Shown in pieces: positions 22,987-60,812 of a DNA stretch of 64,000 nucleotides; the first letter of the stretch is position 1, and the number at the start of each line of letters is the position of its first letter. A model generated the notes under the pieces. The model had not been told where the DNA came from and searched no databases. It was given only the letters and a program-made list of their open reading frames with translations. The DNA is taken from IMG/VR virus record IMGVR_UViG_3300042907_001596, positions 1 through 64,000 of that record. One strand, given 5' to 3'. This stretch comes from a virus. Position numbers and translations under genes: made by a program.

Positions 22987-23027
22987 GGAATATCTGCCCG
23001 CCTCCCGGCGTTCTTGTAGATGGAGGG
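22987..23027 (+). promoter_or_regulatory. Class-1 promoter GGAAT-N18-GTT-N8-TGGAGGG (copy 1)
   Basis: GGAAT 22987, GTT 23010, TGGAGGG 23021; same spacing in seven copies. Confidence 0.8.
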
Positions 23028-23056
23028 GCCAGGTGGCTCCGCCGGGAGGGATCGAC

Positions 23057-23482
23057 ATGGGAAGGTTTGCCAAGCTCGACCTGGGTTGGTTCTGCTGCGA
23101 CGGTTGGCGTTGCGCGGATTGTCACCGGCTCAAAGAAGGATCTGGCGGCGTCTACAGCCTCTGCGTCCTAGGTGTGCTGTGCGGTGCTTGCGAGCACGAA
23201 GTGGAAGCCGGTATCCCGGCCCCGCCCGAACCACCCGCCCCCGAACTGAAGGGCGCAGCTATCGCGCTGGACGCCTACGGACTGGGCATCGTTCGATTCT
23301 ACGGCCCCGACGCCGAAGATCACGCGCTGGCCTTCCTAGCCCGCAAAGATGCTGAAGAGGTGCGGGAACTGCCCATCGACCGGGCCTACGAACGGCTGAT
23401 CGAAGCCCTCTACCCACAATGCGAACACGGCCTGGAACTCGCGCTGTGTGCAGGCCCCGGCCACTACCCGATGGATATGTGA
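23057..23482 (+). CDS. Hypothetical Cys-rich protein
   Basis: RBS GGGAGGG, ATG 23057; CxxC pairs and C-terminal CEHGLELALCAGPGHY. Confidence 0.65.
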   Translation: MGRFAKLDLGWFCCDGWRCADCHRLKEGSGGVYSLCVLGVLCGACEHEVEAGIPAPPEPPAPELKGAAIALDAYGLGIVRFYGPDAEDHALAFLARKDAEEVRELPIDRAYERLIEALYPQCEHGLELALCAGPGHYPMDM

Positions 23483-23661
23483 TGAAAGCCTGCCGCGAGT
23501 GCTACCACCTGGCCGACGAGCCGAAGCCGCACAGCATCCTGTGCTCCAAACGGGAGCCGGTGACCTGCTCTCACTGCGGGGCGCAGTTCCGCATCCCCGG
23601 TCAGACGTACGGCTTCAGCCACTGCGACCTTCACGCGGAATACACCCCGCTGCCCGACTAG
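23482..23661 (+). CDS. Small Zn-finger-like protein
   Basis: TGATG coupling; CRECYH, CSHCG, FSHCDLH. Confidence 0.6.
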   Translation: MKACRECYHLADEPKPHSILCSKREPVTCSHCGAQFRIPGQTYGFSHCDLHAEYTPLPD

Positions 23662-23702
23662 GGAATGTCCGGCCTCCCCGCTACGTTGTAAGTAGTGGAG
23701 GG
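23662..23702 (+). promoter_or_regulatory. Class-1 promoter (copy 2)
   Basis: GGAAT 23662, GTT 23685, TGGAGGG 23696. Confidence 0.8.
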
Positions 23703-23708
23703 AGAAAT

Positions 23709-23918
23709 ATGGACAGGATCACTGAGCGCGACGTGGACGACCGTCCGTTCGACCACGACGGCGAACTCGTGACCGCCGAAGAGTGGTGGGAGCACTTCCG
23801 CGCCGAAGCCTGCTGCCGCGACTGGCACCAAGCCGCCGCACTGCTGTGCGGCTGCGGCGGGTCGGGCGCACTACCCAGCGGCATCAGCCGCTTACTGATT
23901 GGAGAGGAGGAGTTATGA
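23709..23918 (+). CDS. Hypothetical protein
   Basis: ATG 23709 with RBS GGAGGGAG, directly behind the promoter motif. Confidence 0.65.
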   Translation: MDRITERDVDDRPFDHDGELVTAEEWWEHFRAEACCRDWHQAAALLCGCGGSGALPSGISRLLIGEEEL

Positions 23919-24076
23919 CACCGCACGAAGCGGAAAAAATCCGCCGCCGGGATCGCACCCAGCGGGGGCGCTCCCCTGCCCAGCGCACTACGCGCAGCAA
24001 GGACAAAGGCCGCGCCGCCAAACGCCCCGGTAAGGGGGAGCGCAACGCATGGAAGAAAGCCCTCGTCAACGCCTGA
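23915..24076 (+). CDS. Small basic hypothetical protein
   Basis: RBS GAGGAGGAG, ATGA overlap, Arg/Lys-rich. Confidence 0.6.
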   Translation: MTPHEAEKIRRRDRTQRGRSPAQRTTRSKDKGRAAKRPGKGERNAWKKALVNA

Positions 24077-24264
24077 TCTGGCATCGACGCAAAGGGCTGG
24101 GTGGGCTGTACGCCCGCCTGCCCGACAAACAGTCTTACGACATCACCCTCGCCCCGGTCGACGGCTATTACCTGTCACTGGTGCTGCCCGACGACCGGCG
24201 GATCACGCTGGGTCACTTCGGCAAGCAAGTGGAAGCGAAGCGGTTCGCGGAAGCGAGGGAATAA
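24049..24264 (+). CDS. Hypothetical protein
   Basis: RBS GGGGAG; stop TAA overlaps the next GGAAT. Confidence 0.55.
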   Translation: MEESPRQRLIWHRRKGLGGLYARLPDKQSYDITLAPVDGYYLSLVLPDDRRITLGHFGKQVEAKRFAEARE

Positions 24265-24298
24265 CCCCGGCACTCCCAGCGTTGGACTAGGTGGAGGG
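24258..24298 (+). promoter_or_regulatory. Class-1 promoter (copy 3)
   Basis: GGAAT 24258, GTT 24281, TGGAGGG 24292. Confidence 0.8.
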
Positions 24299-24309
24299 AA
24301 GGAAACAGA

Positions 24310-25626
24310 ATGACTGCCCCAATCATCATCGCCCCGGCCGACGAAGCCGTGGTGCTGCACATCCCCGCCTACCGGCGGGACGACCTCGACCACAAACTGG
24401 CTATCGCCAACCGCCGCTTAGAGCGCGGTGGTGTCGACGGCCGGTTCAGCTACGTCGCGGTGCCCGTTGAGCGCAAGATCCGCAAAGGCGCGATCGAACT
24501 GCCCGACGGCACTTTGTTCGGCGGCACCGAAGTGGTTGAACCCTGGCTGGACATCACGCTCGACGCCCTCAAGATCGGCGGCGGCGACCACACCTTCGTT
24601 GCGGCCCTGGTGGGCGAAGAGGCGGGTTACACCGTCCACTGCGCTCCCGGCCAAAGCCTCGACGGCTGGGTGCGCCCGCCGGTGGACGACATTCACTGCG
24701 ATCACTGCGGCCTGAAGCGCGACCGCCGCCGGATCTACATCGTGCGCGACGACCGGGACGGCAAGCTCCTCCAGGTCGGCCACTCCTGCATTGAGCTTTA
24801 CACCGGCCTCAAGATCAAGGGCCTGTGGGCGCTGGAGTTCGGCAAGGAACTGCGCGGCTGGGCCGACGAAGACACCGGCGGCGGCTTCGGTGACCGCGAC
24901 TACGGTGCGCCGGTCGACAAGGTGCTGGCGCTAGCCTTCGCTTTCGCTGACGAAGGCCGCAGCTACGTCTCCGTCAAAGCGGCGGAAGCCGGGGTGGGTG
25001 ACGCCACCGGCGGTCTGGTGCGGAGCGCACTGTTCTTCCCGCCCCGGCCTCCCCGCTCCGGCGCTAGCCCCCGCGAGCACGCGGCGTACGAAGACTTCCT
25101 CGCAAAGGTGCGCCTGGCTGAGGTCTTCGTCACCGACGCCGCCCTCATCGCCGGGATCCGCGAAGCCGCCGACACCTTAGAGGCGGGCACCGACTACGGC
25201 GACAACATGAAGGTCATCCTCGCCGGGGAGTACGTCTCCGGCCGCAACGTCGGGATCCTCGCCTCGCTGGTCGCGGTCTACGCCCGCGAGAAGGAACTCG
25301 CCGTCAAGCGGGAGCAGGAAGCGAAGTCGCCTCCGGCGAAGGGGTTCCTCGCGGAGGTCAAGGTGCGGGTGCGGGATCTGGAACTGGCCCTGCGGACGGT
25401 GAAGTCCTGGGAAGGCCAGTGGGGCTGGACGACCCTCCTGGTCGGCCGCGCCGCCACCGGGCACACGGTCAAGTGGTTCGCCTCCGGCTCGCTCGACCTG
25501 GAGCCGGGGGACACCCTCTTCCTGAAGGCCGCAACGGTCAAGGCCCACGAGGTCTACGAAGGTGTCGACCAGACGGTCATCACCAGGGGCGTCATCGACC
25601 ACGACAAGATGGGCGCGGTGGTGTAA
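24310..25626 (+). CDS. Hypothetical protein with Zn-ribbon and C-terminal OB-fold-like region
   Basis: CDHC...QVGHSC; C-terminal VKWFAS...ATVKAHEVYEGVDQTVITR; strong RBS. Confidence 0.7.
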   Translation: MTAPIIIAPADEAVVLHIPAYRRDDLDHKLAIANRRLERGGVDGRFSYVAVPVERKIRKGAIELPDGTLFGGTEVVEPWLDITLDALKIGGGDHTFVAALVGEEAGYTVHCAPGQSLDGWVRPPVDDIHCDHCGLKRDRRRIYIVRDDRDGKLLQVGHSCIELYTGLKIKGLWALEFGKELRGWADEDTGGGFGDRDYGAPVDKVLALAFAFADEGRSYVSVKAAEAGVGDATGGLVRSALFFPPRPPRSGASPREHAAYEDFLAKVRLAEVFVTDAALIAGIREAADTLEAGTDYGDNMKVILAGEYVSGRNVGILASLVAVYAREKELAVKREQEAKSPPAKGFLAEVKVRVRDLELALRTVKSWEGQWGWTTLLVGRAATGHTVKWFASGSLDLEPGDTLFLKAATVKAHEVYEGVDQTVITRGVIDHDKMGAVV

Positions 25627-25657
25627 AACGGCAGAACCCGCCAGGGAAAGGGTGAAG
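25622..25657 (+). promoter_or_regulatory. Class-2 promoter-like motif TGTAAA-N18-GAAAGGGTGAAG
   Basis: Both boxes and spacing are identical to the copy at 51132; separate RBS GGAGG at 25672. Confidence 0.62.
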
Positions 25658-25685
25658 TCAACGCCCACCCTGGAGGGTTCTTTTT

Positions 25686-27398
25686 ATGCCGCCCGCCTAC
25701 CGGCTTTACACCTTCGGTGGCACCGGAAACCTTAGCGTCGCGCTGGGGAAGACGGCCGTCGACCCCACTTACAGCACGGCGTCCGTCGACTACTCCCAGG
25801 CGGGCTACGGAGCGCAGATCGCCCAAGGAGTAAACCCCCGCCAGGTGGAGTGGGTGCCGGTGGCGTACGCCGCAGCGGCCTACCCGATGAATGTGTCCGT
25901 AGCGACCGCAGTCAACCGCACCGTCTCTATGATCCTCGCCAACCCCGGCAAGATCTTCCTGGCAGGAACCAGCCAGGGTGCGTACGTCACCAGCCAGCTT
26001 TGGCGGGAGTTCACCACCGGCCGTCTGGTGAGCCGCCGTGCCGACCTCGTCCGCATCTACCACTACGGCAACCCGCTGCGCCAAGCCAAGATGTTTCGCG
26101 GCACCCGTAACCCCGGTGGGCACGGCTGCGCCGCAGCGAACCTTCGGCTGACCAACACCGACCCGGCTGTCGTGTGGGAGTTTGCCAACCCCGGCGACCC
26201 GGTGGCAATCCAGTTTGACGACCAAAAGGGCACCTGGGCAGCGAGCTTCTTCGGCATCCTCAACCAGAACGCGACCAGCGTCTCGACGCTGGCGGCGCAG
26301 ATCTCCACGCTGCTCCTCAAACCCAACGCCAACCTATCCACGCTGGTGTCGCTCATCAACGACTTGATCAACAACATGCTCAACCAGACCGGCAAGCACA
26401 ACGCCTACCAGAACTTCTTCCCGTTCGGGGGGACGAAGAGTTCCGTGCAACTGGCGATAGACGACATCGCCACCATCGTCGGCGCACCGTCATCGAAGAC
26501 CCGGCATTACATTGCAATCCCTCCGGCGCTGTCGGTTGACGACCTCACGAAGACCTGCACCGGCATCAAAAACCTCAACATCGGATCGGTGCGGATCCCG
26601 GTGCCGTGGGGGGCAGCGCAGACTTCCGCGACGACCTTCGCGTGGACACCTTTCGACCAAGCCGTCAACGCCGCCCTCACCGCCGGACTGCGGATCCTGC
26701 TGGTGATCGCCCCTACCCGGCCGGAGTGGGCGACCGTCGCTACGTCCAACCTCAGCTTCGGCACCTTTGCCGCTGCTGTTGTGTCCCGCTACCGCCCCGG
26801 CGGCACCGGGGTCATCGCCAGCAACGCCGGGAAGGGTGCGGAGGAGTACCAAGTTTGGGACGAGCCGAACGTCATTGAGAACCTAACGACCGGCGATAAT
26901 CCAACCGCGTCAGGCTACGTCGCTTACCTTCGGGAAGCGTACGTCGCCATCAAGCGAGAGCAGCCAACCGCCACGGTGGTATTCGCCGGACTCCAAGCCT
27001 GCACCACCCAAACAATCGCCGCTGCCCGCCGGGTATCCCGCGCCGCCCTGACAACTTCCGCCAACATCGACCCCGTTACTTTCCTCACCGACTGCTACGC
27101 CGCCGGGGCAAAGCCTTTCTTCGATGTGATGGCCTACCATCCGCTGTCGATGGCGACTCGACAGAAACCTCAACCGCCCGCGCCGAGCGTCAACCTCATC
27201 GCCCAGTCCGACAGCATCAACGCCCTGATGGTGGCGAAGGGCGACGGCACCAAGCCGATGTACTGGACGCAAGTCGGCTACAACACCGCACTGATCACCC
27301 AAACCCAGCAGCAGGCATACCTGGACACGATGCGGTGGCTGGCGCACGAACGCACTTATGTGACCGGCATGGTCGTATCGGGATACCGGGATTTCTGA
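25686..27398 (+). CDS. Cutinase/LysB-like esterase fused to GH5/GH39-like (clan GH-A) barrel
   Basis: GTSQG elbow, YGNPLR, FANPGDP, KHNAY; then VRIPVPW, VWDEPN, DVMAYHP, YWTQVGY. Confidence 0.78.
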   Translation: MPPAYRLYTFGGTGNLSVALGKTAVDPTYSTASVDYSQAGYGAQIAQGVNPRQVEWVPVAYAAAAYPMNVSVATAVNRTVSMILANPGKIFLAGTSQGAYVTSQLWREFTTGRLVSRRADLVRIYHYGNPLRQAKMFRGTRNPGGHGCAAANLRLTNTDPAVVWEFANPGDPVAIQFDDQKGTWAASFFGILNQNATSVSTLAAQISTLLLKPNANLSTLVSLINDLINNMLNQTGKHNAYQNFFPFGGTKSSVQLAIDDIATIVGAPSSKTRHYIAIPPALSVDDLTKTCTGIKNLNIGSVRIPVPWGAAQTSATTFAWTPFDQAVNAALTAGLRILLVIAPTRPEWATVATSNLSFGTFAAAVVSRYRPGGTGVIASNAGKGAEEYQVWDEPNVIENLTTGDNPTASGYVAYLREAYVAIKREQPTATVVFAGLQACTTQTIAAARRVSRAALTTSANIDPVTFLTDCYAAGAKPFFDVMAYHPLSMATRQKPQPPAPSVNLIAQSDSINALMVAKGDGTKPMYWTQVGYNTALITQTQQQAYLDTMRWLAHERTYVTGMVVSGYRDF

Positions 27399-28555
27399 TG
27401 ACACAAAACAGCTACGGACTCTTTGACTCCAACTACGCCGCTAAGAAAGCAGCAGCATCGGTAGCCCGATGGAATGACGGCGTGAAGCGCCACACCCTTT
27501 ACACGGTGTGCGGCACCACCCAAGACGGCTGGGGCATCGTCAACATCCCGTACGAAGCCGAAGCCAAAGCGGCGCTCTACAAGCTGTACTACTCAATCGG
27601 AGGCACCGATCCTCCGCCGGTGGATGGAGAGCGCGGCCCGAACATCAACCTCATCAACACCGATGCCGTCGTCGGGGTGTACGCCGACCCGGCGCTGTTC
27701 AACTGGGTGCCGGTGAGCTACCCGGCGTCGATGCCGACTGGTGCGGGCCTTCTCGACAACGACTGGCAGCCGCAGAACATCTCTTTCCTCGACTCTGTCA
27801 CGCTGGGCGTGAAGGAACTGACCAGCCTAATCTTAGCCACACCGGGAACCTTCGCTCTGGTGGGAATGAGCCAAGGAGCGATGGTCATCACCAAAGTTTT
27901 GCACGCGATGATGACGCCGGGGACGGCGCTGTCAGCGCGGATGGGGGACTGCATCGCCGGGTTGGCATATGGAAATCCGCACCGCAAGCCGGGGGCGTCT
28001 TTCACCGGCGGCACCCACCTCAAGCTCAACGTCGGCGGGGTGAGTTATGTCGGCGGCGGGCTGTTCTCGTCGGCACCTCCCGCCACCACCCCGGCCGCTC
28101 TCGCCCAGAACATGCTGCTAGGAAATGGCAGTGTCACCACCCCCGACTGGTGGTGGGAAATGTGTACACCCAACGACTTCTTTGCCGACTCCCCGATCAC
28201 CACAATCGCCGGTGCGGTGATGGGAGAGATTGCCCGCGTCGCCGTCGGCATCAGGGGCGGCATTGACCCAATGGAGATGATGAGAAACATCGCGGGTGCG
28301 TTCCTCAAGCCGGGTGCGATCACCTGGGATGGATTTGCCTCGCTGCTCCAGACGCTGTCGCAGCCGAAAGTCACTAAGGTCATCACCGACTGGCTGGGGG
28401 CGTTCTCCGCACCGACACCGAACCCGCACATCTTGTACGGGGTGCTCTCGCCGCCGACCCTGCCGACCGGGCTGGGCCTCGCGCCGAAAGCAACGTACCA
28501 CGAAGTCGGCGTCGCTTACATGAACGCACGCGGCAGAGCTATCGCCCCGCGTTAG
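27398..28555 (+). CDS. Cutinase/LysB-like alpha/beta hydrolase
   Basis: LVGMSQGA, YGNPHR, CTPNDFF, PHILY triad motifs; TGATG overlap. Confidence 0.78.
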   Translation: MTQNSYGLFDSNYAAKKAAASVARWNDGVKRHTLYTVCGTTQDGWGIVNIPYEAEAKAALYKLYYSIGGTDPPPVDGERGPNINLINTDAVVGVYADPALFNWVPVSYPASMPTGAGLLDNDWQPQNISFLDSVTLGVKELTSLILATPGTFALVGMSQGAMVITKVLHAMMTPGTALSARMGDCIAGLAYGNPHRKPGASFTGGTHLKLNVGGVSYVGGGLFSSAPPATTPAALAQNMLLGNGSVTTPDWWWEMCTPNDFFADSPITTIAGAVMGEIARVAVGIRGGIDPMEMMRNIAGAFLKPGAITWDGFASLLQTLSQPKVTKVITDWLGAFSAPTPNPHILYGVLSPPTLPTGLGLAPKATYHEVGVAYMNARGRAIAPR

Positions 28556-29049
28556 GCTCCGCGAATCACTTCGTTGTAGTTGAAGTCGGTGCCTAGTGCC
28601 ACATGAATAGTGATCGGTGGCCCATCCAGTGCGTGCCGCTCTTCGTTGTACAACAGTGCCCAGCGGGGAATGGTGACTTCCCCCCGAACAAATCTCCTCC
28701 CCAGTTCGGTGAGCCGCCAAAACCCATTGCGCGGATTACCGTCGGCCTTCTCGCCGTCGCGCCCCTCAATCAAGCCCCAATGCTGAGACTTCACAGAGTC
28801 TCCACCTTTATCGCCGGTAAGGCTGGGAGTGTGATGCCAACCGTGAGGGTCTTCCCGATACATCGCCACCATTAGTCGGGCCATCTTGGCGTCGAAGGGA
28901 CGCACCGACATGGCGACATTTTGTCGGCAAGCGGGGCACTCCACCCCAGGATTGGCTTTCAGCCTGCCGGTGCGCCCACGCTTTGTTGGAATTAGCCGGT
29001 CAAGGATCCACCGGCGCACTTCGCCTAACGTCGTTTCGTCAGGGAACAT
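28552..29049 (-). CDS. Hypothetical Zn-ribbon/winged-helix-like protein
   Basis: CPAC; WGLIE...GFWRLTELGRRFV; directly downstream of the helicase. Confidence 0.62.
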   Translation of the reverse strand: MFPDETTLGEVRRWILDRLIPTKRGRTGRLKANPGVECPACRQNVAMSVRPFDAKMARLMVAMYREDPHGWHHTPSLTGDKGGDSVKSQHWGLIEGRDGEKADGNPRNGFWRLTELGRRFVRGEVTIPRWALLYNEERHALDGPPITIHVALGTDFNYNEVIRGA

Positions 29050-30948
29050 CTACCCTCCAAAGATCAGAAACTCCAGGTTGTCGTTCTCCGACCGGCTGGA
29101 GGAGTAGGACATCGCCTCCGTCGTACCGAGCGTTACTGATGCCAACTCCCGGCGGTCGTTACATATTCCCCACACCCGCTGCTCGACGGAATCGTCGGTG
29201 ACGTAGACGTACGCCGTCAGCCCGTCCAGGTAACTGTCGGCCCGGTCGATGCGGTTGGAGCGTTGCATCAAGATGTCCCACGAATACGGCGACTCGTAGT
29301 GAATGACGTAGCGGGCTTCGGTCATGTTCAGCCCGAAAGCCCCGGCGTCGGAGGACAGGAACACGGTGATCGCCGGGTCGGACTTGAAGTCCTCCTGGGC
29401 CTGCTGGTTCTCCCCGGCGGTGCGCCCGCCGTGGTGGGTAACGTACTTGATGCCCCGGCTCGTTAGTCCGGCGGCGATCAGATCCAAACTCATCGTCACC
29501 CACTGGGTGAAGATCAGCGTCTTGTCGCCGGAGTCGCGGATCGCCTCCACTTGGTCTAAAACGGCCTCCAGCTTCACGCTGTGCGACGAACTGACGAGGG
29601 TGGGGTGATCCTCTGCCAACTGCTTGCCGAACGGGTCTGTCGTCCATCTGAGGGCTTCGGGGTTGTTGCAGACGTACCGCAGCAGCCGGTAGAACGGCAT
29701 CAGGTTCTCCCCGACCGCCGCCGCCAGCCGTGCTTCCTCCACGATCACGTCGTACAGCCGCCGATCCTCCCGGCTCAACTGCACCGGCACGGTCACGGTT
29801 TGAAGGCCCTTGAAGTTGTCGCGGACGGCCGGGTCGGTTTTGCGCACCGACTGGGTGCGGTCGCACACCCGGTGACGCACCTCGTGCAACCGGGCCAGAT
29901 CCCACTCGTAGAAGGTGACCGGGAAGGTACCGTACCGGGTGGGCATGTTGTGGACTCTGACTTCTGCGGCGTACCGCTCCACGAAGCCCTGCCGGGAACC
30001 CAGCGGATTGTCGCCGGGGCCAGACAGCGCAAACACATCCCGGTACCGCAGGGGGCTGGCCGCGACGACCGACGCCGACATCGGCCACACCGTGGCGTGG
30101 CAGTTGAAGACCAGATCATCGAAGCGGCGGCGGAACGTGTTGGGCTTGTCGTCGGTTAGCAGCTTGGAGGCTTCGTCCGCGATGATCAGCACCCGGCGTC
30201 CGGCGGTCAACTCACTCAGAGCGCCGAAGTCCACGCGGGCCTTCTCGTAGTTCAGGACGTACACGTCGTGTCCGGCGGCGTAGCCTTTCCGGCGCTTCGC
30301 CGGGGTGCCGTCGTTGACGACGGCGTCCAGCCCGGTGGTGGAGGTGATGAATCGGCACAGGTTGGTCTTGAGGGGGCCGAGAGTGAAGGCCAGGATCACA
30401 TCGACAAGACCCCGGTTGACCATCTCTTGGGCACCGGCGGCGGCGAAACAACTCTTGCCCGTCCCGGTGGCCCACCCGACGAAGGTCAGCCGCTCGTCAG
30501 GGCGAGAAGCGTGCGCTCGCTCCAGCGCCCGGTTCAGGGTGAAAGTCTGGTAGGGGTACAGGCTGCCCTCGCCGGGGCAGACGAACCCGGCGATGTCCAG
30601 CGGCTGCTCCCACCGGGCGACCGCCTCAAGGATGGGGGCGCAGGAAGAGCCGAACAGCACCGTCCAGTCATCCTTCTCCAGAAGCTCAACGAAGTCGTGC
30701 AGCAGGAATAGCTCGTTAAGGCACAGATGCCGCGACAGCCACTCGCTGTAGGTGGCGAGGAACGGCGGCGGGTTGACGGTTTGAAACAGCAGGCTGCCGG
30801 GGTAGGAGGGATGCTGCTCAACGACTACCAGGCGATCGGGGTCGACGCCCTCGACCGCTGCGGCGAGGTCATCGGTGATCGGATACACCCCACCAACATA
30901 CCGGATGAGCAGGTGTTTCACTGATGTAGTTGCACTCGTGTCATTCAC
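29050..30948 (-). CDS. SNF2-like (SF2) DNA helicase
   Basis: ATGTGKS, IIADEAS, MSAS, FLSSDAGAFGLNM, QRSNRIDR motifs. Confidence 0.88.
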   Translation of the reverse strand: MNDTSATTSVKHLLIRYVGGVYPITDDLAAAVEGVDPDRLVVVEQHPSYPGSLLFQTVNPPPFLATYSEWLSRHLCLNELFLLHDFVELLEKDDWTVLFGSSCAPILEAVARWEQPLDIAGFVCPGEGSLYPYQTFTLNRALERAHASRPDERLTFVGWATGTGKSCFAAAGAQEMVNRGLVDVILAFTLGPLKTNLCRFITSTTGLDAVVNDGTPAKRRKGYAAGHDVYVLNYEKARVDFGALSELTAGRRVLIIADEASKLLTDDKPNTFRRRFDDLVFNCHATVWPMSASVVAASPLRYRDVFALSGPGDNPLGSRQGFVERYAAEVRVHNMPTRYGTFPVTFYEWDLARLHEVRHRVCDRTQSVRKTDPAVRDNFKGLQTVTVPVQLSREDRRLYDVIVEEARLAAAVGENLMPFYRLLRYVCNNPEALRWTTDPFGKQLAEDHPTLVSSSHSVKLEAVLDQVEAIRDSGDKTLIFTQWVTMSLDLIAAGLTSRGIKYVTHHGGRTAGENQQAQEDFKSDPAITVFLSSDAGAFGLNMTEARYVIHYESPYSWDILMQRSNRIDRADSYLDGLTAYVYVTDDSVEQRVWGICNDRRELASVTLGTTEAMSYSSSRSENDNLEFLIFGG

Positions 30949-31135: not shown

Positions 31136-31153
31136 GGCGCACTACGCCCTTGC

Positions 31154-45716: not shown

Positions 45717-46424
45717 ATGGGGAACAGACCCCTAGGAGATCTGGCGGAGTCGGTAGCTGAACAGCTAGCGACCGAGAGCTTCGCCCCGCTGACTGAGGAA
45801 ATCCTCACCGAAGAGGACGCCATCGAATCCCAGCGGGCCAGCATCTTCTCTAAGATTCGCTTCTCGTGGCGACCCGAAGACCGTGCCATCCTCGACCGTA
45901 TCCGGCTGGCGTCGGACTCTATGGTGGAGGAAGCCTTCGGGGAAGCCATTTCCACTATCGACCGCTTTTACGAGCAGCTTCGGATACCGGAGACGACGTG
46001 GGTCGACAACCATGAGGTGGTGCGGCGAGGGCCGGACGGCCGGGTGGTGTGGAAGCGGTCGGACGAAGGAAAGATCATCGAACGGTGGGATCAACTCACC
46101 GGGCCGGACATTGAGATGACCATCGCGGATCTGCTCCGGCTCAAAATGCTTATCGCCCCCCAAGTCAACCAACTCCTCAACGAAGCCATCTACGCTAAGC
46201 ACGTTGCGTCCGACGCTTACGACGACGCTTGGGGCACCGTCATCCAAGGCACCCAAGGCGACCGCACTGCCAAAGCCAACCGGCAAAGCCGCCAAGACCG
46301 CTACCACGCCCACTTCCGCTACGTTCTCTACTCCACCGCCAACACTTTGGTGCGCGAAATCGTGGTGTTTATCAACCGGCTCGCAGACATCCGCGAGTGG
46401 CAGATCCGAAGCCAGCCACGGTAG
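45717..46424 (+). CDS. Hypothetical helical protein
   Basis: RBS GGGAGAGGT; long ORF in operon. Confidence 0.72.
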   Translation: MGNRPLGDLAESVAEQLATESFAPLTEEILTEEDAIESQRASIFSKIRFSWRPEDRAILDRIRLASDSMVEEAFGEAISTIDRFYEQLRIPETTWVDNHEVVRRGPDGRVVWKRSDEGKIIERWDQLTGPDIEMTIADLLRLKMLIAPQVNQLLNEAIYAKHVASDAYDDAWGTVIQGTQGDRTAKANRQSRQDRYHAHFRYVLYSTANTLVREIVVFINRLADIREWQIRSQPR

Positions 46425-46428: not shown

Positions 46429-46902
46429 ATGGCCCGCCGCCTCCCCGACGACCCGGTCAAACGCCGCCTCCAACACTTCAAGAGGCTCTACCAACACTTA
46501 GAGCACTGGAAAGTGTTGCTGGAAACCGGCGACATGAGTCACCTCATCACCGTGCCCGAAACCGGTGAGGAAATCTATCTTCTCGACCTGATGGTCGGCA
46601 TCGACTCGCTGCCACCCCGCCAGCGCGAAGCCTTTGAGTTGATCTGCCTACTGGGGTACACCGAAACCGATGCCACCCGCAAAATGTTGCCCCACTCCCG
46701 ATGGTCGACCCCGATACAGCAGTACGCCGATACCGCACTGGCCCGCATGGTGGCCGCATACGACGCCGCCCAAAGCGGCAGCTACACCCACACCGTCTAC
46801 ATCAAAAAAGGGGCCAAGCCTGTCGAGGGAGCTTGCCCCACTTCACCAGGAGAGCACGATGAAGAACGAGATCCCCGAAGCAAAGCTGATGCCCCTACTT
46901 AG
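46429..46902 (+). CDS. Sigma-70 region-4-like HTH protein
   Basis: IDSLPPRQREAFELICLLGYTETDATRKM resembles sigma region 4; no region 2 recognisable. Confidence 0.65.
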   Translation: MARRLPDDPVKRRLQHFKRLYQHLEHWKVLLETGDMSHLITVPETGEEIYLLDLMVGIDSLPPRQREAFELICLLGYTETDATRKMLPHSRWSTPIQQYADTALARMVAAYDAAQSGSYTHTVYIKKGAKPVEGACPTSPGEHDEERDPRSKADAPT

Positions 46903-54543: not shown

Positions 54544-54743
54544 AGAGTGAGCGCCAATTTTCCGCATTGGATCACTACAATTCCGCTGCTGCCAGCCTCC
54601 AGCAGATCGCGGAAAAGCATGACGAGCCTGACTTCGGCGTGGCCGACGCTGCCCTGCTCCTCAACGTCGCGACCACCCATGCCCTGCTGGGGCTGCTGAA
54701 GCTGGGTATCACCGACGCCCGCTTCGCTGGGCGGATGGAGTGA
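54540..54743 (+). CDS. Hypothetical protein
   Basis: ATGA overlap; ATTHALL motif. Confidence 0.55.
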   Translation: MKSERQFSALDHYNSAAASLQQIAEKHDEPDFGVADAALLLNVATTHALLGLLKLGITDARFAGRME

Positions 54744-54744
54744 G

Positions 54745-54954
54745 GTGTTGAGGACTCCCGGCCAGGAGTACACCGCTGAGTGCGATGACACGACTTCGCC
54801 GGAATGTGAACACACCACCAAGATCAGCGCCATCAACGACGCCACCGCGCTGTATCTGCTGAGCCGGAAAGGGTGGCTCACCACGGTGGTGTACGGGGCG
54901 GAAATCCGTAACGAACTGACCTGCCCTGCCTGCGCGTTGCGCCGCAATGATTGA
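54745..54954 (+). CDS. Small Zn-finger-like protein
   Basis: CD...C, GW, TCPAC. Confidence 0.55.
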   Translation: MLRTPGQEYTAECDDTTSPECEHTTKISAINDATALYLLSRKGWLTTVVYGAEIRNELTCPACALRRND

Positions 54955-55186
54955 CAGTGTGGGTGTTAAAGTTATCCCACAGCACGAATCCCAGGAGGAC
55001 ACGGTGAAGCAAGGGTATTGGGAGACGAGGGCTGCCCAGTTGGTGCAGCAGTCCTCCGACCACTCACCGCTGCTGAACCAATGGATTGAGCGGCTGGGTA
55101 AGTCTCACGACAGCCTCATCCAGTTGTTCATCCATTCCATAGGTGGAGACAATCCAAGTCGACACAACAACTCAAGGGAGCAGTAG
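54947..55186 (+). CDS. Hypothetical protein
   Basis: In-operon ORF; start uncertain. Confidence 0.4.
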   Translation: MIDSVGVKVIPQHESQEDTVKQGYWETRAAQLVQQSSDHSPLLNQWIERLGKSHDSLIQLFIHSIGGDNPSRHNNSREQ

Positions 55187-55354
55187 ATGCTTCAGATCAT
55201 CATAGGAGTCACCCCACTACTCGCCGGGATCTGGCTGCTGTACCGCCACGACGAAGACACCCACATGCTGGCGTTAGGCATCATCGCATCGGTCATCCTG
55301 ATCGGGTGCGTTCTACTGCTCCTGAGCGGGGTAGGAAAGGTTCTGCAACCATGA
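55187..55354 (+). CDS. 55-aa two-TM membrane protein (not in ORF track)
   Basis: RBS AAGGGAG; two hydrophobic stretches; ATGA overlap with the peptidase. Confidence 0.55.
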   Translation: MLQIIIGVTPLLAGIWLLYRHDEDTHMLALGIIASVILIGCVLLLLSGVGKVLQP

Positions 55355-56049
55355 CACGCACCTTCGGTCGATTCGTTGAACACGACCCCCGCAGCCGGAT
55401 GTTCGCCGCCCCCACCCCCCCGACGAAGCGGTCGGTGTTGTGGGCGCACCACGGCCCAGTACTGGATCAAGGGGAGATGGGATCCTGCACCGGCAGTGCC
55501 GCCGCGCAACTGATCAACACCGATCTGTTCGCCGCCGTACGCCCGAAGGGATACCTCACCCAAAACGACGCCATCAAGCTGTACGCCAGAGCGACGATGC
55601 TGGACGACGCCCCCGGCACCTTCCCGCCGGACGACACCGGCTCCTCCGGTTTAGCGGTCGCTAAAGCCGGGGTGCAGATGAAGTACTTCGGCGCGTACAA
55701 GCACGCCTTCGGGTTCGACAAGTTCTGCGCCGTCCTGCAAACCAGCCCGCTGCTGGTAGGGACGAATTGGTACACGTCGATGAACAAAACCTCCACCACC
55801 GGGCTGGTGACTGTGCGCGGCCAACTGGAAGGGGGACACCAGTGGCTGGCAATAGGGGTGGACTACGAGCGCCAGCAGATCACCGGCCTCAACAGTTGGG
55901 GGCCGACGTGGGGAAAGAACGGCCGCTTCTTCCTGAGCTTCACCACGATGCGCAGGCTGCTGGCCGAACAAGGCGACGCTGTCGCCCCCACCCCGGCGGT
56001 GAAGCGCACCCTGCTTTCCTTCATCCTGCCGAAAAAGGTGACGCCATGA
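55351..56049 (+). CDS. Papain-like (C1) cysteine peptidase
   Basis: DQGEMGSCTG, GGHQW, NSWGPTWGKNG. Confidence 0.85.
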   Translation: MTRTFGRFVEHDPRSRMFAAPTPPTKRSVLWAHHGPVLDQGEMGSCTGSAAAQLINTDLFAAVRPKGYLTQNDAIKLYARATMLDDAPGTFPPDDTGSSGLAVAKAGVQMKYFGAYKHAFGFDKFCAVLQTSPLLVGTNWYTSMNKTSTTGLVTVRGQLEGGHQWLAIGVDYERQQITGLNSWGPTWGKNGRFFLSFTTMRRLLAEQGDAVAPTPAVKRTLLSFILPKKVTP

Positions 56050-56447
56050 TCCGCAATGAACTGCTGTCGATGCTGGCCGATGACCGCATCACCATCCCGA
56101 CCGACCGGCTGCTGGAGCTACTGGGGGACATGAACTTCTTCGCGGACTGCCCCCCGCCGGAACTGGTCGCCATGACCGGCGACGACACCATGCGGGAACT
56201 GCTCAGTGCGATGTGGTCGGCCGGATACCGCGACGCCATGAAGGCGGTGATGACGCTAATCCCCAGGACGGAGCCGCAGAGCCGAGCCGAACTGATGGCC
56301 AAGCTCACCGACGCCCTCACGTCGTGGGAGAAGCACCCGAAGTACGGCGACAACGTGCCTCGCGGGGATGTCATCCAGGCTGCCGACGAACTGGCCACCC
56401 TCGCCGCCGAGATGCTGGACAAGCTCAAAGCCCCGATGGGAGAGTGA
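56046..56447 (+). CDS. Hypothetical protein
   Basis: ATGA overlap, RBS AAGGTGA. Confidence 0.6.
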   Translation: MIRNELLSMLADDRITIPTDRLLELLGDMNFFADCPPPELVAMTGDDTMRELLSAMWSAGYRDAMKAVMTLIPRTEPQSRAELMAKLTDALTSWEKHPKYGDNVPRGDVIQAADELATLAAEMLDKLKAPMGE

Positions 56448-56582
56448 GATGGAAGATCGCAAGCCGCAAACCGCTGACCATCTGGTCGACCAGATCCGCA
56501 CCGTAGTCGACCAAGACATCACCGCCCCCAACGAGTGGTACAAGATCATCCTGGCGGTGCGCGACCTCGTCGGGGTGACCCG

Positions 56583-56846
56583 ATGAGCGAGCCGACCTTC
56601 CAGTACGCCGTCGATGTTGATGTCGACCTCGACCTGACGGCGTGCTGCTCGCTGAAGCACATCGTCAACCGCCGCCCATTCTGTAGCCGACCGGCGGAGT
56701 GGATCGTGATGCTTGGCTGCTGCGGCTACCGCAAGCTGGTGTGCAGTCACCACCGCAATGTGTCGGACAGTGTCTTCCCGCTGATGTTCCTCTGTACCCG
56801 CTGCCACGCTCAGTACCCGCCGACGGCGGCGGCGTGGAGGGTGTAG
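56583..56846 (+). CDS. Small Cys-rich protein
   Basis: CC, CSRPAEW, CCG, CSHH, CTRC. Confidence 0.55.
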   Translation: MSEPTFQYAVDVDVDLDLTACCSLKHIVNRRPFCSRPAEWIVMLGCCGYRKLVCSHHRNVSDSVFPLMFLCTRCHAQYPPTAAAWRV

Positions 56847-57017
56847 AGGGCGATGACCTCACCACTTTGGAGGTGAGGTTGAGCCGGTACATCACCGCCG
56901 ACGGAAAGATGGCGTTCCGCATGGTCACCCCCGACAAATACAACGTGGTGGAGATGCTGGGGCTGCTGGAGGCGGCGAAGTTCACGATCTTCCACGAGAT
57001 GTCCCCGAAGGATGACG

Positions 57018-57368
57018 ATGACTGACCTACGCACCCGTATCGCCGCCGCGTGCAGCGACTACTTCGCCATGCTCCGGCGGGATGACTACGTCGTTGACGG
57101 CGTCAACCCGCAGGAGGTGGCCGACATTGCGCTCCTGGCCGTGGACTTCGACGCCTGGCTGCGCTACGGCATAGAGCAGGGCTGGTGTGGCCCGCCGTGC
57201 TGCGTCCCGCACGACGGCATCGGCATCACCACAGCCGAAGAGGCTGAGTACGACGACGGCGGCGACCCTTGCTACCACGTCCTGCGGCTATACGCCGACG
57301 CCGACACCAAAGCGGCGGTGGAGGACAACCACGCTCCGTCCATCTGGCGGGCCACCAACCTGGCGTAG
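57018..57368 (+). CDS. Hypothetical protein
   Basis: WLRYGIEQGWCGPPCCVPHDG...GGDPCYHVLRL. Confidence 0.62.
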   Translation: MTDLRTRIAAACSDYFAMLRRDDYVVDGVNPQEVADIALLAVDFDAWLRYGIEQGWCGPPCCVPHDGIGITTAEEAEYDDGGDPCYHVLRLYADADTKAAVEDNHAPSIWRATNLA

Positions 57369-57408
57369 GAATATCTCCGGCCTTCCTGGCGTTATAGCTA
57401 GTGGAGGG
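57368..57408 (+). promoter_or_regulatory. Class-1 promoter (copy 4)
   Basis: GGAAT 57368, GTT 57391, TGGAGGG 57402. Confidence 0.8.
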
Positions 57409-57436
57409 GCGAAGTGCCCCGCCGGGAAGGATCACC

Positions 57437-57847
57437 GTGGCTCCAAGCCTCGCGCACATCGACGCCATGTCAGCCAAGGCGAAGGCTGCCTTGCTGCGCC
57501 AAGACGGCGTGGAAGCCCTCAGTGCCCGGTTCATCGACTTCAAGGGTGAACCCGTACTGATCAAGCGCAGCGACGGCGTGACTGTCGTTCACTACAGGGA
57601 ACGCTACGCAGGCCAGTACATCGTCCTGTATGGCGAGAAGGATGGCCGCGTCGGTGTCACCCTCGCCACCTACAAGGTGAAGGTGACCCCCGGCCCCGCC
57701 AAGCCGGAGCGCACCGCCGACGGCGGCGTGATCTTCATGGTCAACTCCCTGTCGGTCGGCGTGAAGCGCATCAAGCGGCTGCCGCCGGGATTCCAAGGTG
57801 CGCTCAACGACGCGCAGCACGACTACGAAAGGGCGATGGAATCGTGA
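57437..57847 (+). CDS. Hypothetical protein
   Basis: GTG 57437 behind RBS GGGAAGGA. Confidence 0.62.
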   Translation: MAPSLAHIDAMSAKAKAALLRQDGVEALSARFIDFKGEPVLIKRSDGVTVVHYRERYAGQYIVLYGEKDGRVGVTLATYKVKVTPGPAKPERTADGGVIFMVNSLSVGVKRIKRLPPGFQGALNDAQHDYERAMES

Positions 57848-58004
57848 GAATCGGAAAAGCGGTCATCGGTAAGTGGGGTCGCATCGGCCTCGTCACCGAC
57901 CTGTACGGCCTGGAAGAGTTCGGCCGGATCTTTGAGTACGCCACCGTCACCTACGCCGAAGGTGACAGCGACGAGTTCCCGGTGGATGGGCTGGAGGTGT
58001 ACTG

Positions 58005-58307
58005 ATGACCAAGCAGAATAGGCACAAGCACACCGGCCGCTACGCCCCGATCTACGAGCGCGGCTACCTAGCCTCGCTGGGCAATACCTACTTCCCCAAG
58101 CGCGACAAGTTCGGGTCGCCAGCGTGGATGGCAAAACTGCACATATACGGCACCACAGCCCCCACCAATCTCAGCGTGGATGACCTCACCCAGCGAATGG
58201 GCAAGCAAGCAGCGCAGGCTTTTGAAGACGGTTGGTTCGATGCCCTAGAGGACAACGTGAGCTACGAGGAGAGCTACGACGAATGTCGAGCAGTGGACAC
58301 CGCATGA
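58005..58307 (+). CDS. Hypothetical protein
   Basis: RBS GGAGGTG, TGATG coupling. Confidence 0.6.
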   Translation: MTKQNRHKHTGRYAPIYERGYLASLGNTYFPKRDKFGSPAWMAKLHIYGTTAPTNLSVDDLTQRMGKQAAQAFEDGWFDALEDNVSYEESYDECRAVDTA

Positions 58308-58561
58308 TGGTGCAACTGGAAGTCCAGTTCAAGACCGCACGGCCAATCGGCCAAGAGGTTGGGATGGAGATGTGGCTTCTTGGCGACTACTTCGTATCGA
58401 CCGGGGCCTGCGCCTACATGCTTCAGGCAAAGGGTGAGGCGGAATCCCTCACCGATGCCGTCGAGGGGCTGGTGGCTCAGATTGGCGAGGTTATTGGATC
58501 CCCCGGTGGCTGGGATGTGGTGGTTACGAAAACCAAGGCAGAGATGGTAGAACAATGCTAG
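58304..58561 (+). CDS. Hypothetical protein
   Basis: ATGA overlap. Confidence 0.5.
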   Translation: MMVQLEVQFKTARPIGQEVGMEMWLLGDYFVSTGACAYMLQAKGEAESLTDAVEGLVAQIGEVIGSPGGWDVVVTKTKAEMVEQC

Positions 58562-58779
58562 GCCGCGCCATCGCCGCTCTGCGGATAGAGCGCGGGATGA
58601 GTCGCAAAGACCTCGTTCGTGCCGCCGGGATCTCCTATCCCTACCTGGCCGAAGTGGAGAAGAGCATCAAGCTGCCCTCGTCGGCCATGCTGGGCAAGCT
58701 GGCTGCGGCACTTCACGTCATGCCCTCCGAACTCTTAGAGCGGGCAGAGCAGATTGCCGCCGACCCCAGGAATGTCTGA
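58555..58779 (+). CDS. XRE-family HTH regulator
   Basis: LRIERGMSRKDLVRAAGISYPYLAEVEKSIKLPS. Confidence 0.85.
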   Translation: MLGRAIAALRIERGMSRKDLVRAAGISYPYLAEVEKSIKLPSSAMLGKLAAALHVMPSELLERAEQIAADPRNV

Positions 58780-58790
58780 AAGGAAACGCC

Positions 58791-58997
58791 ATGATCACCC
58801 TCACCATCACCCACGCCGATGACCGTAAGACCCGGCGGGTCACCGACCATGCCACCGCCGAAGAGGCGCAGGCCGTCCTGGTTGCCTGGGCCGACGGCGA
58901 GAAGATCAGCCCCACCAGCCCAACGACGGGAACGGTCGGGGAACGAGAAGATCGCTCGTTCTGGTATTACTCCATCGCGGAATATCAGAGCGCCTGA
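58791..58997 (+). CDS. Hypothetical protein
   Basis: RBS GAAAGGA. Confidence 0.6.
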   Translation: MITLTITHADDRKTRRVTDHATAEEAQAVLVAWADGEKISPTSPTTGTVGEREDRSFWYYSIAEYQSA

Positions 58998-59019
58998 CGG
59001 CGTTGTAACAAGTGGCGGG
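58979..59019 (+). promoter_or_regulatory. Class-1 promoter (copy 5, TGGCGGG variant)
   Basis: GGAAT 58979, GTT 59002, TGGCGGG 59013, hairpin GGCGGGA/TCCGCC. Confidence 0.75.
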
Positions 59020-59044
59020 ATCATCCGCCTGGAAGGAGACACCC

Positions 59045-59296
59045 ATGGAGTATCGCGTCGTTGGCCACGAGGTGTGGCTGTTCTACGCCGACGGTGGCGA
59101 GGAACGCTTCGCTGTACTGGAAGGCCCGAACGGTGCTGCGTTGGTAGCACGGCTGCTCAACAAAAACCTGGCTGAGATCGCCGCAGAGAAGTTGTCTGCC
59201 GAACAACTCGCCCTCGACCGCGCCCGCTACGAAGAGATGCGGGCTGAAATCGTGCGGCGCGAACGGCGTGAACGCTATGGGGTGAAGTCGGAATGA
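59045..59296 (+). CDS. Hypothetical protein
   Basis: RBS GGAAGGAG, ATG 59045. Confidence 0.65.
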   Translation: MEYRVVGHEVWLFYADGGEERFAVLEGPNGAALVARLLNKNLAEIAAEKLSAEQLALDRARYEEMRAEIVRRERRERYGVKSE

Positions 59297-59453
59297 CCTC
59301 CACCATCCCTATCACCCACCTCAAGCCCTACGAGCGGCTGTCCAACGGACGCCTCGTCGTCGCCGTTACGGTCGAGCGCGACACCGTCACTGTGACCCTC
59401 AAGGGCGGCAAGCCCATCGCCTACCCCGCCGACTACGAAGTGGATGTGAGGAT

Positions 59454-59813
59454 ATGACCAAGCCAATGGGCGTCTGCCCCGCCTGCGAGGGCAGCACCCG
59501 CCGCCCGGTGCCGGAGGCTTCCCGGCGCTACATCAAGCACAACGCCAAGTGGGGCCATTGGGGTACCGCCGGATACCTGCCCCCCGGCCCCGGCCCGTAC
59601 GTCCAAGGACAAGGCTGGGAAGAGGGCGGCACGTTCCCTTGCAACAACTGCGGCGGGCAGACGATGTTCTCCAAAGCCACCGGCGAGGTGCCGCTGCGCC
59701 CCGACGGCACACCGTGCCTGCACGAGTACACCCACAAGACGACCCGCAACTGCTATCACGAATCGACGTGCAAGCACTGCGGCTTCCACTACGCCATCGA
59801 CAGCGGCGACTGA
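59454..59813 (+). CDS. Zn-finger hypothetical protein
   Basis: CPACEG, CNNCGG, CLH, CKHCG. Confidence 0.65.
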   Translation: MTKPMGVCPACEGSTRRPVPEASRRYIKHNAKWGHWGTAGYLPPGPGPYVQGQGWEEGGTFPCNNCGGQTMFSKATGEVPLRPDGTPCLHEYTHKTTRNCYHESTCKHCGFHYAIDSGD

Positions 59814-59820
59814 CCCAGGT

Positions 59821-59929
59821 TTAGCAAGGGATGTAACGCAAATGCTAAGAAGACCCGGCAGCAGGCCGGGAACGAGGTTGGCGGGCCAACGCCTCCGTAA
59901 CCAGTCGGAGTGTTCCCACCCGTCATCCC
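59821..59929. ncRNA. Candidate structured non-coding element
   Basis: Five to six short helices incl. possible pseudoknot GGGATG/CATCCC; family unknown, strand unknown. Confidence 0.3.
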
Positions 59930-59934
59930 AGAAC

Positions 59935-59975
59935 GGAATAATCACCCCTGATCTGGCGTTATAGCTAATGGAGGG
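59935..59975 (+). promoter_or_regulatory. Class-1 promoter (copy 6)
   Basis: GGAAT 59935, GTT 59958, TGGAGGG 59969. Confidence 0.8.
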
Positions 59976-60004
59976 GCCGGGTGGCCCCGCCGGGAAGGGT
60001 TCTC

Positions 60005-60160
60005 ATGCAGAAGCCATGGCAGCAGATGCACGTTCGCAACGGCGTGCGTTTCCAGCCCAAGTGCCCTTGTGGCTGGCAGGGTCGTCCGGTGGCCGATCGG
60101 GCGAGGGCGGAGCGCGAAGCCGACCGCCACGGCCCCGGTTGCGGTTGGGGTGATGAGTGA
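60005..60160 (+). CDS. Small Zn-finger-like protein, 51 aa (not in ORF track)
   Basis: RBS GGGAAGGG; KCPCGWQG...ADRH; TGATG coupling. Confidence 0.55.
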   Translation: MQKPWQQMHVRNGVRFQPKCPCGWQGRPVADRARAEREADRHGPGCGWGDE

Positions 60161-60384
60161 TGGCTGACCCCAACGCCAAGTACGAAGCGGAGCTTCGGGA
60201 GCAGCTAGCCGAAGCCATCGACTACGTCGCAAAGTCGGCTCTCGCCCTGGAAGAGGCCAAAGGCCACCTGGAGCGCGACCTCGACCGCCTGGAGAAGATC
60301 AAGAGGAAGCTGGACGGCCTCGCCGCCCTGAAGGCCCGAGAGGACGCCTACTGGGCTGAGGTCGACGCCAAGGAAGGAGCCTGA
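60160..60384 (+). CDS. Small coiled-coil protein
   Basis: Heptad-rich ORF, coupled to upstream stop. Confidence 0.6.
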   Translation: MADPNAKYEAELREQLAEAIDYVAKSALALEEAKGHLERDLDRLEKIKRKLDGLAALKAREDAYWAEVDAKEGA

Positions 60385-60385
60385 G

Positions 60386-60778
60386 ATGGCGCGGAAGATG
60401 ACCCGGCACGGCGTCACCGTGGTCGGTGGTGGCGGCTTCTACGTCACACTTGACGGCCGGTTTGAGGTTGTTAAGGTTGACGACTTTGAGACATCCTGCG
60501 ACGAACCGCACCCTGTGAAGCTGCCGCGTGAGAAGTGGTTCATGGACGGCGACTACGACAGCCGTGGCCGGTGGGTCACCAAGCTCAAGAAGGGGTACCG
60601 CTGCGAAGGCGGCGGGACGCACTTCTATGTGGCCTGGCACATCTGGGATCGCCAGAACGGCTGGGACGGCGAGTATGCAGAGGGCACCGGGCCGGGTGAG
60701 TTCGACACCTTCGATGAAGCCATGCGCGACCTGGCCGACATCCTCAAGCGCGAGGCAGCCAAGCACGCGGTGGAATAA
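60386..60778 (+). CDS. Hypothetical protein
   Basis: RBS GGAAGGAG; stop overlaps the next GGAAT. Confidence 0.65.
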   Translation: MARKMTRHGVTVVGGGGFYVTLDGRFEVVKVDDFETSCDEPHPVKLPREKWFMDGDYDSRGRWVTKLKKGYRCEGGGTHFYVAWHIWDRQNGWDGEYAEGTGPGEFDTFDEAMRDLADILKREAAKHAVE

Positions 60779-60812
60779 TCCGCCCCGCCTCAGCGTTCTA
60801 CTAGATGGAGGG
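60772..60812 (+). promoter_or_regulatory. Class-1 promoter (copy 7)
   Basis: GGAAT 60772, GTT 60795, TGGAGGG 60806, hairpin TGGAGGG/CCCTCCA. Confidence 0.8.

Follow-up and report, generated by a model that had tools for sequence, protein, structure and literature searches.

Which factor reads the bipartite element GGAAT-N18-GTT-N8-TGG(A/C)GGG, repeated at gene boundaries in the IMG/VR virus record IMGVR_UViG_3300042907_001596, is the question raised by this locus. The stretch analyzed (the window) is the first 64 kb of this 150,440-bp record (63% G+C, judged complete), which belongs to an uncultured 150-kb relative of Bxz1-type mycobacteriophages and has 187 of its 190 called open reading frames (ORFs) on the + strand. 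An earlier note on the window had described seven copies of the element as a regulon served by a stress sigma factor of the extracytoplasmic function (ECF) type, from the host or from the phage itself. As described below, the repeats are very probably promoters of the SigH/SigR type (ECF12). Judging from their sequence, it is likely that they are read by the host RNA polymerase with a host SigH-family sigma factor and drive small accessory genes.

Copies and conserved columns of the element

All seven sites described earlier (22987, 23662, 24258, 57368, 58979, 59935, and 60772) are exact and lie on the + strand, making 7 matches in the window against 0.20 ± 0.45 in shuffles. With the shorter pattern GGAAT-N18-GTT, 8 matches are obtained where 1.21 would be expected. 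The additional one lies at 29144 on the − strand, falls below 12 bits on the weight matrix, and probably arose by chance. The search over the full genome and relatives that the earlier note had proposed extended the regulon. Across the whole record, GGAAT-N17-CGTT occurs in 26 copies (one as GAAAT), every copy on the + strand; the sites are real, and the count of seven has to be replaced. The 26 copies are held by five islands of small genes (22987–24258, 57368–60772, 65779–67729, 77893–86920, and 104972–109416). A weight matrix of 41 columns separates them clearly, with 26 matches of 30–52 bits on the + strand, none between 12 and 30 bits, and no match above 12 bits on the − strand of the whole record. 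De novo discovery of gapped words also ranked GGAAT-N17-CGTT at the top, both in this genome and in that of mycobacteriophage Catera.

The columns conserved across the copies are GGAATA, GCGTT, a TA two bases later, and TGGAGGG, and the 17-nucleotide (nt) spacer is unconserved except for being rich in C (46%). The −35 hexamer follows the form GGAAYR (GGAATA in 24 sites, GGAATG in 1, and GAAATA in 1), and its distance to GTT, restricted to 17 (or 18) nt in ECF12 promoters, is exactly 17 nt at every one of the 26 sites; spacings 1–2 nt shorter or longer return 0–2 matches per strand. The −10 element is CGTT throughout, extended to GCGTT at 24 sites.

A probable promoter of the SigH/SigR type

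Two conserved blocks at a rigid spacing, a variable spacer, and co-orientation with the genes are the signature of a site for a sigma factor. The match to the SigH/SigE/SigR consensus claimed in the earlier note holds, and the core is identical to the published SigH optimum. In Mycobacterium tuberculosis, this optimum is GGAAYR-N17-GTT, with the 17-nt spacing found in 19 of 25 mapped promoters (PMC4803200). The SigH consensus of Corynebacterium glutamicum is gGGAAta ... t/cGTTgaa, in which a T at −31 denotes a SigH-specific promoter, with GGAATA-N17-GTT and GGAATG-N17-GTT among the examples (PMC10012870); the genome of Mycobacterium smegmatis contains 124 such promoters (PMC5430705).

A relative of this phage, G002 (126.5 kb; major capsid protein 86% identical), carries 15 copies of the motif on its gene strand and bears on the position of the transcription start. 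At nine of these sites, an ATG opening an ORF of 44–340 codons stands exactly 9 nt past GTT without a Shine–Dalgarno sequence (random rate, 0.6%), and the remaining sites have leaders with a Shine–Dalgarno sequence. This leaderless arrangement would make sense only if the motif is a promoter. Because leaderless genes need a transcript that begins at the start codon, the start is best predicted at the 10th nt after GTT, rather than 6–8 nt after it as had been expected. In the present phage, the corresponding predicted start is the first G of TGGAGGG. This block thus appears to be the 5′ end of the transcript, acting as a Shine–Dalgarno sequence or as a hairpin arm, rather than a further promoter element. 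Messenger RNAs beginning with GGAGGG would account for the conservation of the block in both forms of the cassette described below, and would place the stem of the long form at nt 1–3.

A reading of the −10 region by the housekeeping factor SigA, through hexamers such as TAGCTA and TATACT, was considered and rejected, as GGAAT would then sit 23 bp upstream and CGTT would be unexplained. No site of the SigA consensus TTGACA-N17-TANNNT was found in this genome.

Anatomy of the cassettes at gene junctions

The seven sites of the window all lie at gene boundaries, as described earlier. Their placement ahead of small non-structural genes is borne out for six of them, which precede small orphan genes, but not for the site at 24258, which precedes a 438-amino-acid (aa) gene followed by two endolysin-like genes (phrog_102). 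The cassettes of the window are as follows.

22987..23059, + strand: cassette 1, long form; GGAATA immediately following the 1919-aa tail gene's stop codon; −10 GCGTT at 23008–23012; predicted transcription start near 23022; 5′ hairpin; Shine–Dalgarno GGGAGGG; ATG at 23057
23662..23711, + strand: cassette 2, short form; GGAATG-N17-GTT; TGGAGGG as the Shine–Dalgarno sequence; ATG at 23709 (69-aa orphan gene)
24258..24312, + strand: cassette 3, short form; upstream stop TAA inside GGAATAA; ATG at 24310, opening the 438-aa phrog_2319 gene, then the two endolysin-like genes
57368..57439, + strand: cassette 4, long form; upstream stop TAG overlapping the first G of GGAAT; hairpin GGGGC/GCCCC; GTG at 57437
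58979..59047, + strand: cassette 5, long form; variant TGGCGGG with CCGCC in the 3′ hairpin arm; ATG at 59045
59935..60007, + strand: cassette 6, long form; 5′ hairpin GGGGCC/GGCCCC; ATG at 60005 (51-aa ORF)
60772..60842, + strand: cassette 7, long form; upstream stop TAA inside GGAATAA; hairpin GGAGGG/CCCTCC (−12.9 kcal/mol); Shine–Dalgarno AAGGAGA; ATG at 60840

Genome-wide, the cassettes are tightly fused to the preceding genes: the upstream stop codon (TAA or TAG) forms the last three bases of GGAATAA/G at 13 of the 26 sites, and lies within 4 nt of the promoter at six more, giving 19. On the downstream side, the distance from GTT to the start codon falls into two classes. In the short form (21–26 nt), GGAGGG itself is the Shine–Dalgarno sequence. 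In the long form (40–47 nt; 17–19 sites), GGAGGGG pairs with CCCC(N)CC a few bases on to give a stem-loop of −9 to −19 kcal/mol, which is followed by a second Shine–Dalgarno sequence, AAGGAGA, and the start codon. Two sites lack TGGAGGG and have CA-rich, unstructured leaders. Since both arms of the hairpin are conserved in sequence, covariation is limited and variation is confined to the innermost pairs; the sole TGGCGGG variant (58979) is compensated by CCGCC in the 3′ arm, so that pairing is kept. The mean z-score of leader folding against shuffles is just −1.6, a modest value attributable to the high G+C content of the leaders.

A pairing of the promoter spacer with the downstream TGGAGGGG, which would form a hairpin around the −10 element and possibly insulate the cassette from read-through, was also considered and rejected as not site-specific. 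The overall energy of −13.1 kcal/mol compares with −12.5 ± 0.6 kcal/mol when partners are permuted and −10.7 kcal/mol with shuffled spacers, and strong complementarity is seen at only about four sites (105898, 108639, 65779, and 77893). The energy therefore reflects C-rich against G-rich composition and not site-specific pairing.

Search for a reader encoded by the phage

The best-surviving alternative to a host reader is a factor of the phage itself: either an ECF-like sigma factor diverged beyond detection, or a protein resembling sigma region 4, perhaps acting with the product of the gene upstream (45717–46424) as a split or appropriating sigma factor. Six-frame searches with Sigma70_r2 (PF04542), Sigma70_r4 (PF04545), and the ECF model TIGR02937 gave no match in this genome at E-values up to 1–10, and PF04542 and TIGR02937 gave no real match in five relatives (Catera, Tonenili, Phrappuccino, Pupper, and G001). 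Thus, no protein with both regions 2 and 4 was found, and region 2 is absent from all six genomes. A phage RNA polymerase was likewise rejected as the reader of the motif, because none was found in this phage, whose large ORFs encode structural proteins or polyproteins. A single gene of this phage is sigma-like.

46429..46902, + strand: sigma region 4-like protein, 157 aa, phrog_2931; candidate reader judged unlikely

This protein has a sub-threshold match to Sigma70_r4_2 (20.5–22.6 bits), and the annotation of its Phrappuccino homologue (61% identical) reads putative sigma-70 factor. In the structure model (mean predicted local distance difference test score, 77), the best local structural matches of the C-terminal part are sigma region 4 domains, all of them weak (3vep SigD4, root-mean-square deviation of 1.5 over 54 residues; also 3hug and 2h27), whereas the N-terminal part consists of two helices and a β hairpin and does not resemble region 2. 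A sequence search of solved structures with the protein and its partner gave no significant match. Phage sigma factors are often very divergent, and phage ECF sigma factors reportedly exist (gp36 of phiEco32), which would speak for such a reader; a sigma factor that evades every model is, however, not expected to read the exact SigH consensus.

The distribution of the protein also argues against it, as it does not co-occur with the motif across relatives. Five relatives without the motif encode it (Phrappuccino, Pupper, G001, G005, and G006). Between this phage and motif-less G001, the putative recognition helix of the protein (STPIQQYADTALARM) does not differ at all, and the version in Catera (motif present) is nearly the same as that in Pupper (motif absent). 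Phyletic profiling of all 190 proteins, with four relatives that bear the motif and five that do not, revealed no gene of sigma character that follows the motif. The proteins common to this phage and Catera only are glycosyltransferases, and the genes found only in motif-bearing relatives encode orphans, a Ku-like protein, a DUF2786 protein, and an HExxH peptidase-like protein. The last of these, a 179-aa protein shared only with G002 and G015, was considered as a hidden sigma factor and rejected, as it carries an HExxH motif. Altogether, a phage-encoded reader appears unlikely. Of the two sources left side by side in the earlier note, the host ECF stress sigma is favored; the phage's own ECF-like factor finds no region 2 or ECF match, and the sole sigma-like gene is untied to the motif.

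The region 4-like gene forms a conserved pair with phrog_2769 (235 aa, 45717–46424) immediately before it. The location of the pair, behind the genes for an exonuclease and a resolvase, is the same in Catera (gp208/209), Tonenili (gp238/239), Pupper (gp158/159), and Phrappuccino (gp129/130), and it could be a late-gene factor.

Distribution of the motif among relatives

Megablast of this phage against the phage collection gave no close DNA relative. The same promoter class is found in some relatives. Catera (classified in the species Bixzunavirus Bxz1) and Tonenili, both cluster C Bixzunavirus phages of M. smegmatis, have 17 forward copies each, with the consensus GGAATGAATCCCCATACCGCTGCGTTATAC located 41–48 nt upstream of independently annotated start codons and followed by CA-rich leaders. 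Of 20 IMG/VR relatives identified by way of the capsid protein, the motif is present in G002 and G015 and weakly in G012, and the rest are without it; G015 has the short form, GTT-N8-TGGAAGGGAG-ATG. Pattern scans over IMG/VR gave only chance singletons with a loose pattern and one chance match with a strict pattern. Across the motif-bearing lineages, the −35/−10 core is common, spacers and leaders vary, and most of the downstream genes are unrelated (a few are shared by G015 and G012; for example, the 136-aa gene at 57437 under cassette 4 has homologues only in these two motif-bearing relatives). Such a shared core in unrelated surroundings points to a common trans-acting factor.

In the Gordonia phage Pupper (MK977695.1), the top-ranked gapped word is TTGACA-N17-TATAGT, a textbook SigA-type promoter in about 16 co-oriented copies, which can also be written TTGACA-N15/16-(C)TGTATAGT. 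Promoters for a host sigma factor therefore appear to be the norm for this slot. Taken together with the housekeeping-type promoters that serve this role in sister lineages, the shared core is easier to reconcile with a conserved host factor than with a factor of the phage that co-evolves. In Phrappuccino and G001, nothing stood out in the discovery of gapped words.

Two further features were seen in the cluster C phages. In Catera and Tonenili, the promoter spacer itself is conserved (CCCATACCGCT in mid-spacer), unlike in the present phage, and it may serve a phage regulator as an additional operator. In Catera (NC_008207.1, 16094–16160), the annotated start of gp52 (16097) is inside the promoter −35; the real start looks like the ATG with a Shine–Dalgarno sequence about 40 nt past GTT.

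Host SigH as the likely reader, and the remaining alternatives

If the reader is a host factor, it may still be another ECF sigma of overlapping specificity, such as SigE or a paralogue of SigH. The SigH and SigE regulons overlap, and their consensuses differ at one or two positions (PMC10012870, PMC5430705). The cGTT present at all 26 sites is the form given for promoters shared by SigH and SigE. The two factors are separated by the last two positions of the −35 hexamer. In C. glutamicum, GGAAT is found in SigH-only promoters and SigE recognizes only a GGAAC −35, and in M. tuberculosis, a C at −31 is essential for SigE (PMC10012870). At hexamer position 6, SigH favors a purine and SigE a pyrimidine (PMC4803200). 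The phage sites have T at position 5 (−31) and A or G at position 6 in 26 of 26 cases; SigH is therefore favored over SigE, and a different host ECF sigma as the reader is quite unlikely. Very improbable is a junction signal of another kind (a protein operator, an RNA-processing or translational signal within a polycistronic transcript, or a recombination or mobile-cassette boundary), for although the cassette has conserved RNA-level features (hairpin and Shine–Dalgarno sequence), promoters often abut an upstream stop without a terminator so that read-through transcripts carry them too, and strong complementarity to TGGAGGGG is seen in a few spacers (105898, 108639), the pair of conserved blocks at a fixed 17-nt spacing around a variable spacer is that of a bipartite sigma site, neither an RNA-processing nor an operator role explains the fixed 9 nt to the leaderless ATGs of G002, the spacer complementarity is not site-specific, and an Rfam search of the cassettes matched no family.

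With 26 copies of the SigH consensus and no sigma factor of its own, the phage therefore probably borrows a host stress factor. In the proposed mechanism, the host RNA polymerase with a host SigH-family sigma factor would read the −35 GGAATA, the 17-nt spacer, and the −10 GCGTT(N)TA, and would initiate transcription on the first G of TGGAGGG, roughly the 10th nt past GTT. In short-form cassettes, the 5′-terminal GGAGGG would serve as the Shine–Dalgarno sequence. In the long form, pairing of GGAGGGG with CCCC(N)CC would put the 5′ end of the mRNA in a stem-loop, which probably protects it from 5′-end-dependent decay, and AAGGAGA would serve the start codon. The start position, the SigH-type host reader, and the stabilization of mRNA by the hairpin are all three predictions from the DNA alone. 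The genes under these promoters are probably early.

Several points weigh against SigH as the reader. SigH is normally kept inactive by the anti-sigma factor RshA, so that a SigH-dependent phage needs either basal SigH activity or release from RshA, and no mechanism of release was found. A sigma factor of a phage may be so divergent that Pfam and NCBIfam models miss it. Phrappuccino, which shares the host species M. smegmatis with Catera, is without the motif, and the strategy is therefore optional. Finally, the assignment of the genes to early rather than middle expression comes from gene content only.

Genes under the promoters and neighboring features

Most genes downstream of the promoters are orphan ORFs of 50–150 aa. 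The recognizable ones encode a PNKP-type phosphatase, an L5 gp82-like protein, a Ku-like end-binding protein, and a DUF2786 protein. The Ku-like DNA end-binding protein (genome 80873–81664; Pfam Ku, 5e-36) is placed directly under the SigH-type promoter at 80800, which would fit an early function in the protection or joining of genome ends. Under the last SigH-type promoter (109416) are a DUF2786/DUF7168 gene and the gene of the 179-aa protein with an HExxH metallopeptidase motif (VVLHELAHHL), at genome 109484–110883. By tblastn, both are shared only with motif-bearing G002 and G015, the HExxH protein being absent from Catera. That the latter is a protease degrading an anti-sigma factor is pure speculation.

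The virion genes are preceded by a second motif, (C)CTGTR-N20-GAADRR, whose 16 copies are all on the + strand. It is found before virion, polyprotein, and lysis-region genes (window 13582, 51131, and 62528; genome 69140, 69857, 88358, 99711, 112313, 122109, 131298, 133879, 134834, and others) and is weakly present in relatives, with four copies each in Catera and Tonenili. We regard (C)CTGT(A/G)-N20-GAA(A/G/T)RR as a candidate late promoter. A match to the int-alpA sRNA family of Rfam (62457–62529, + strand; 38 bits against a gathering score of 35.8; E = 2.8e-4) is located directly upstream of one copy of this second motif and of a 1069-aa polyprotein gene. The 1919-aa, tape-measure-like ORF (17227–22986) matches the minor tail protein family phrog_2840 and has an endolysin-like N-terminal region (phrog_102); two more phrog_102-like genes follow it at 25686–28555.

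Implications

It is possible, though on balance doubtful, that this lineage and the cluster C phages (Bxz1 and Catera) have dropped housekeeping-sigma promoters for accessory or early genes and rely on the host thiol/heat-stress ECF sigma factor instead. If so, the phage would actively free SigH from RshA on infection, with virion-delivered enzymes or the HExxH peptidase-like gene (present in G002 and G015, not in Catera) as possible agents of the release, and would be insulated from the shut-off of SigA-dependent host transcription. Known phage strategies are to use the housekeeping sigma factor of the host or to supply a sigma factor or polymerase of the phage. Control of about 26 promoters in a large phage by a stress ECF sigma factor that only the host encodes would follow a different take-over logic, in which phage expression depends on redox or heat stress of the host or on the release of an anti-sigma factor triggered by the phage. 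In the searchable literature, we found no description of phage promoters wired to a host stress sigma factor in this way. The presence of the same promoter class in the cultured phages Catera and Tonenili makes the host-sigma idea directly testable in M. smegmatis. The cassettes, with their promoter, 5′ hairpin, and Shine–Dalgarno sequence, are also compact and portable expression parts for actinobacteria.

Comparison with known systems

The multi-copy promoters of Pupper resemble the present cassettes in that many co-oriented copies of a single motif are found in a related phage. They are of the housekeeping type, however, whereas those of this phage, G002, G015, and the cluster C phages are of the stress-sigma type. 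Coliphage phiEco32 reportedly encodes an ECF sigma factor, gp36, and its regulon is comparable in that an ECF-type promoter class is reserved for one block of phage genes, orthogonally to the housekeeping sigma factor. In the present phage, by contrast, there is no sigma factor with regions 2 and 4, and the promoter has the host consensus rather than a phage-specific one.

The start-associated sequence (SAS) of cluster K mycobacteriophages is a single 13-bp block adjoining the start codon, with a presumed role in translation. The SAS and its extended form (ESAS) share with the cassettes the repetition of a motif shortly upstream of many start codons in a mycobacteriophage-type genome; here, the conserved parts are instead a bipartite −35/−10 pair with a variable spacer. 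Bacterial 5′ mRNA stabilizers include 5′-terminal stem-loops of the ompA type and Shine–Dalgarno-like STAB-SD elements as in cryIIIA. The likeness to these consists in a stem-loop that begins at nt 1–3 of the predicted transcript of this phage and, in the long form, in a Shine–Dalgarno-like GGAGG at the extreme 5′ end that is not used for initiation. In contrast to ompA and cryIIIA, a stabilizing role of the phage cassettes is a prediction only.

The SigH/SigR regulons differ from the phage set in density, with about 1 promoter per 6 kb in the phage against 124 in the M. smegmatis genome of about 7 Mb. They differ also in that the phage genome has no cognate sigma or anti-sigma gene and its SigH dependence is a prediction from the promoters themselves, and in that the phage copies have a stereotyped 5′ leader (a TGGAGGGG hairpin or a Shine–Dalgarno sequence) and a −35 element overlapping upstream stop codons. 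The likeness lies in the promoters, as the ECF12 promoters of SigH (Mycobacterium and Corynebacterium) and SigR (Streptomyces) have the identical core GGAAT(A/G)-17 nt-(c)GTT, and share with the cassettes A/T-rich bases after GTT and leadered transcripts (PMC4803200, PMC10012870, PMC5430705).

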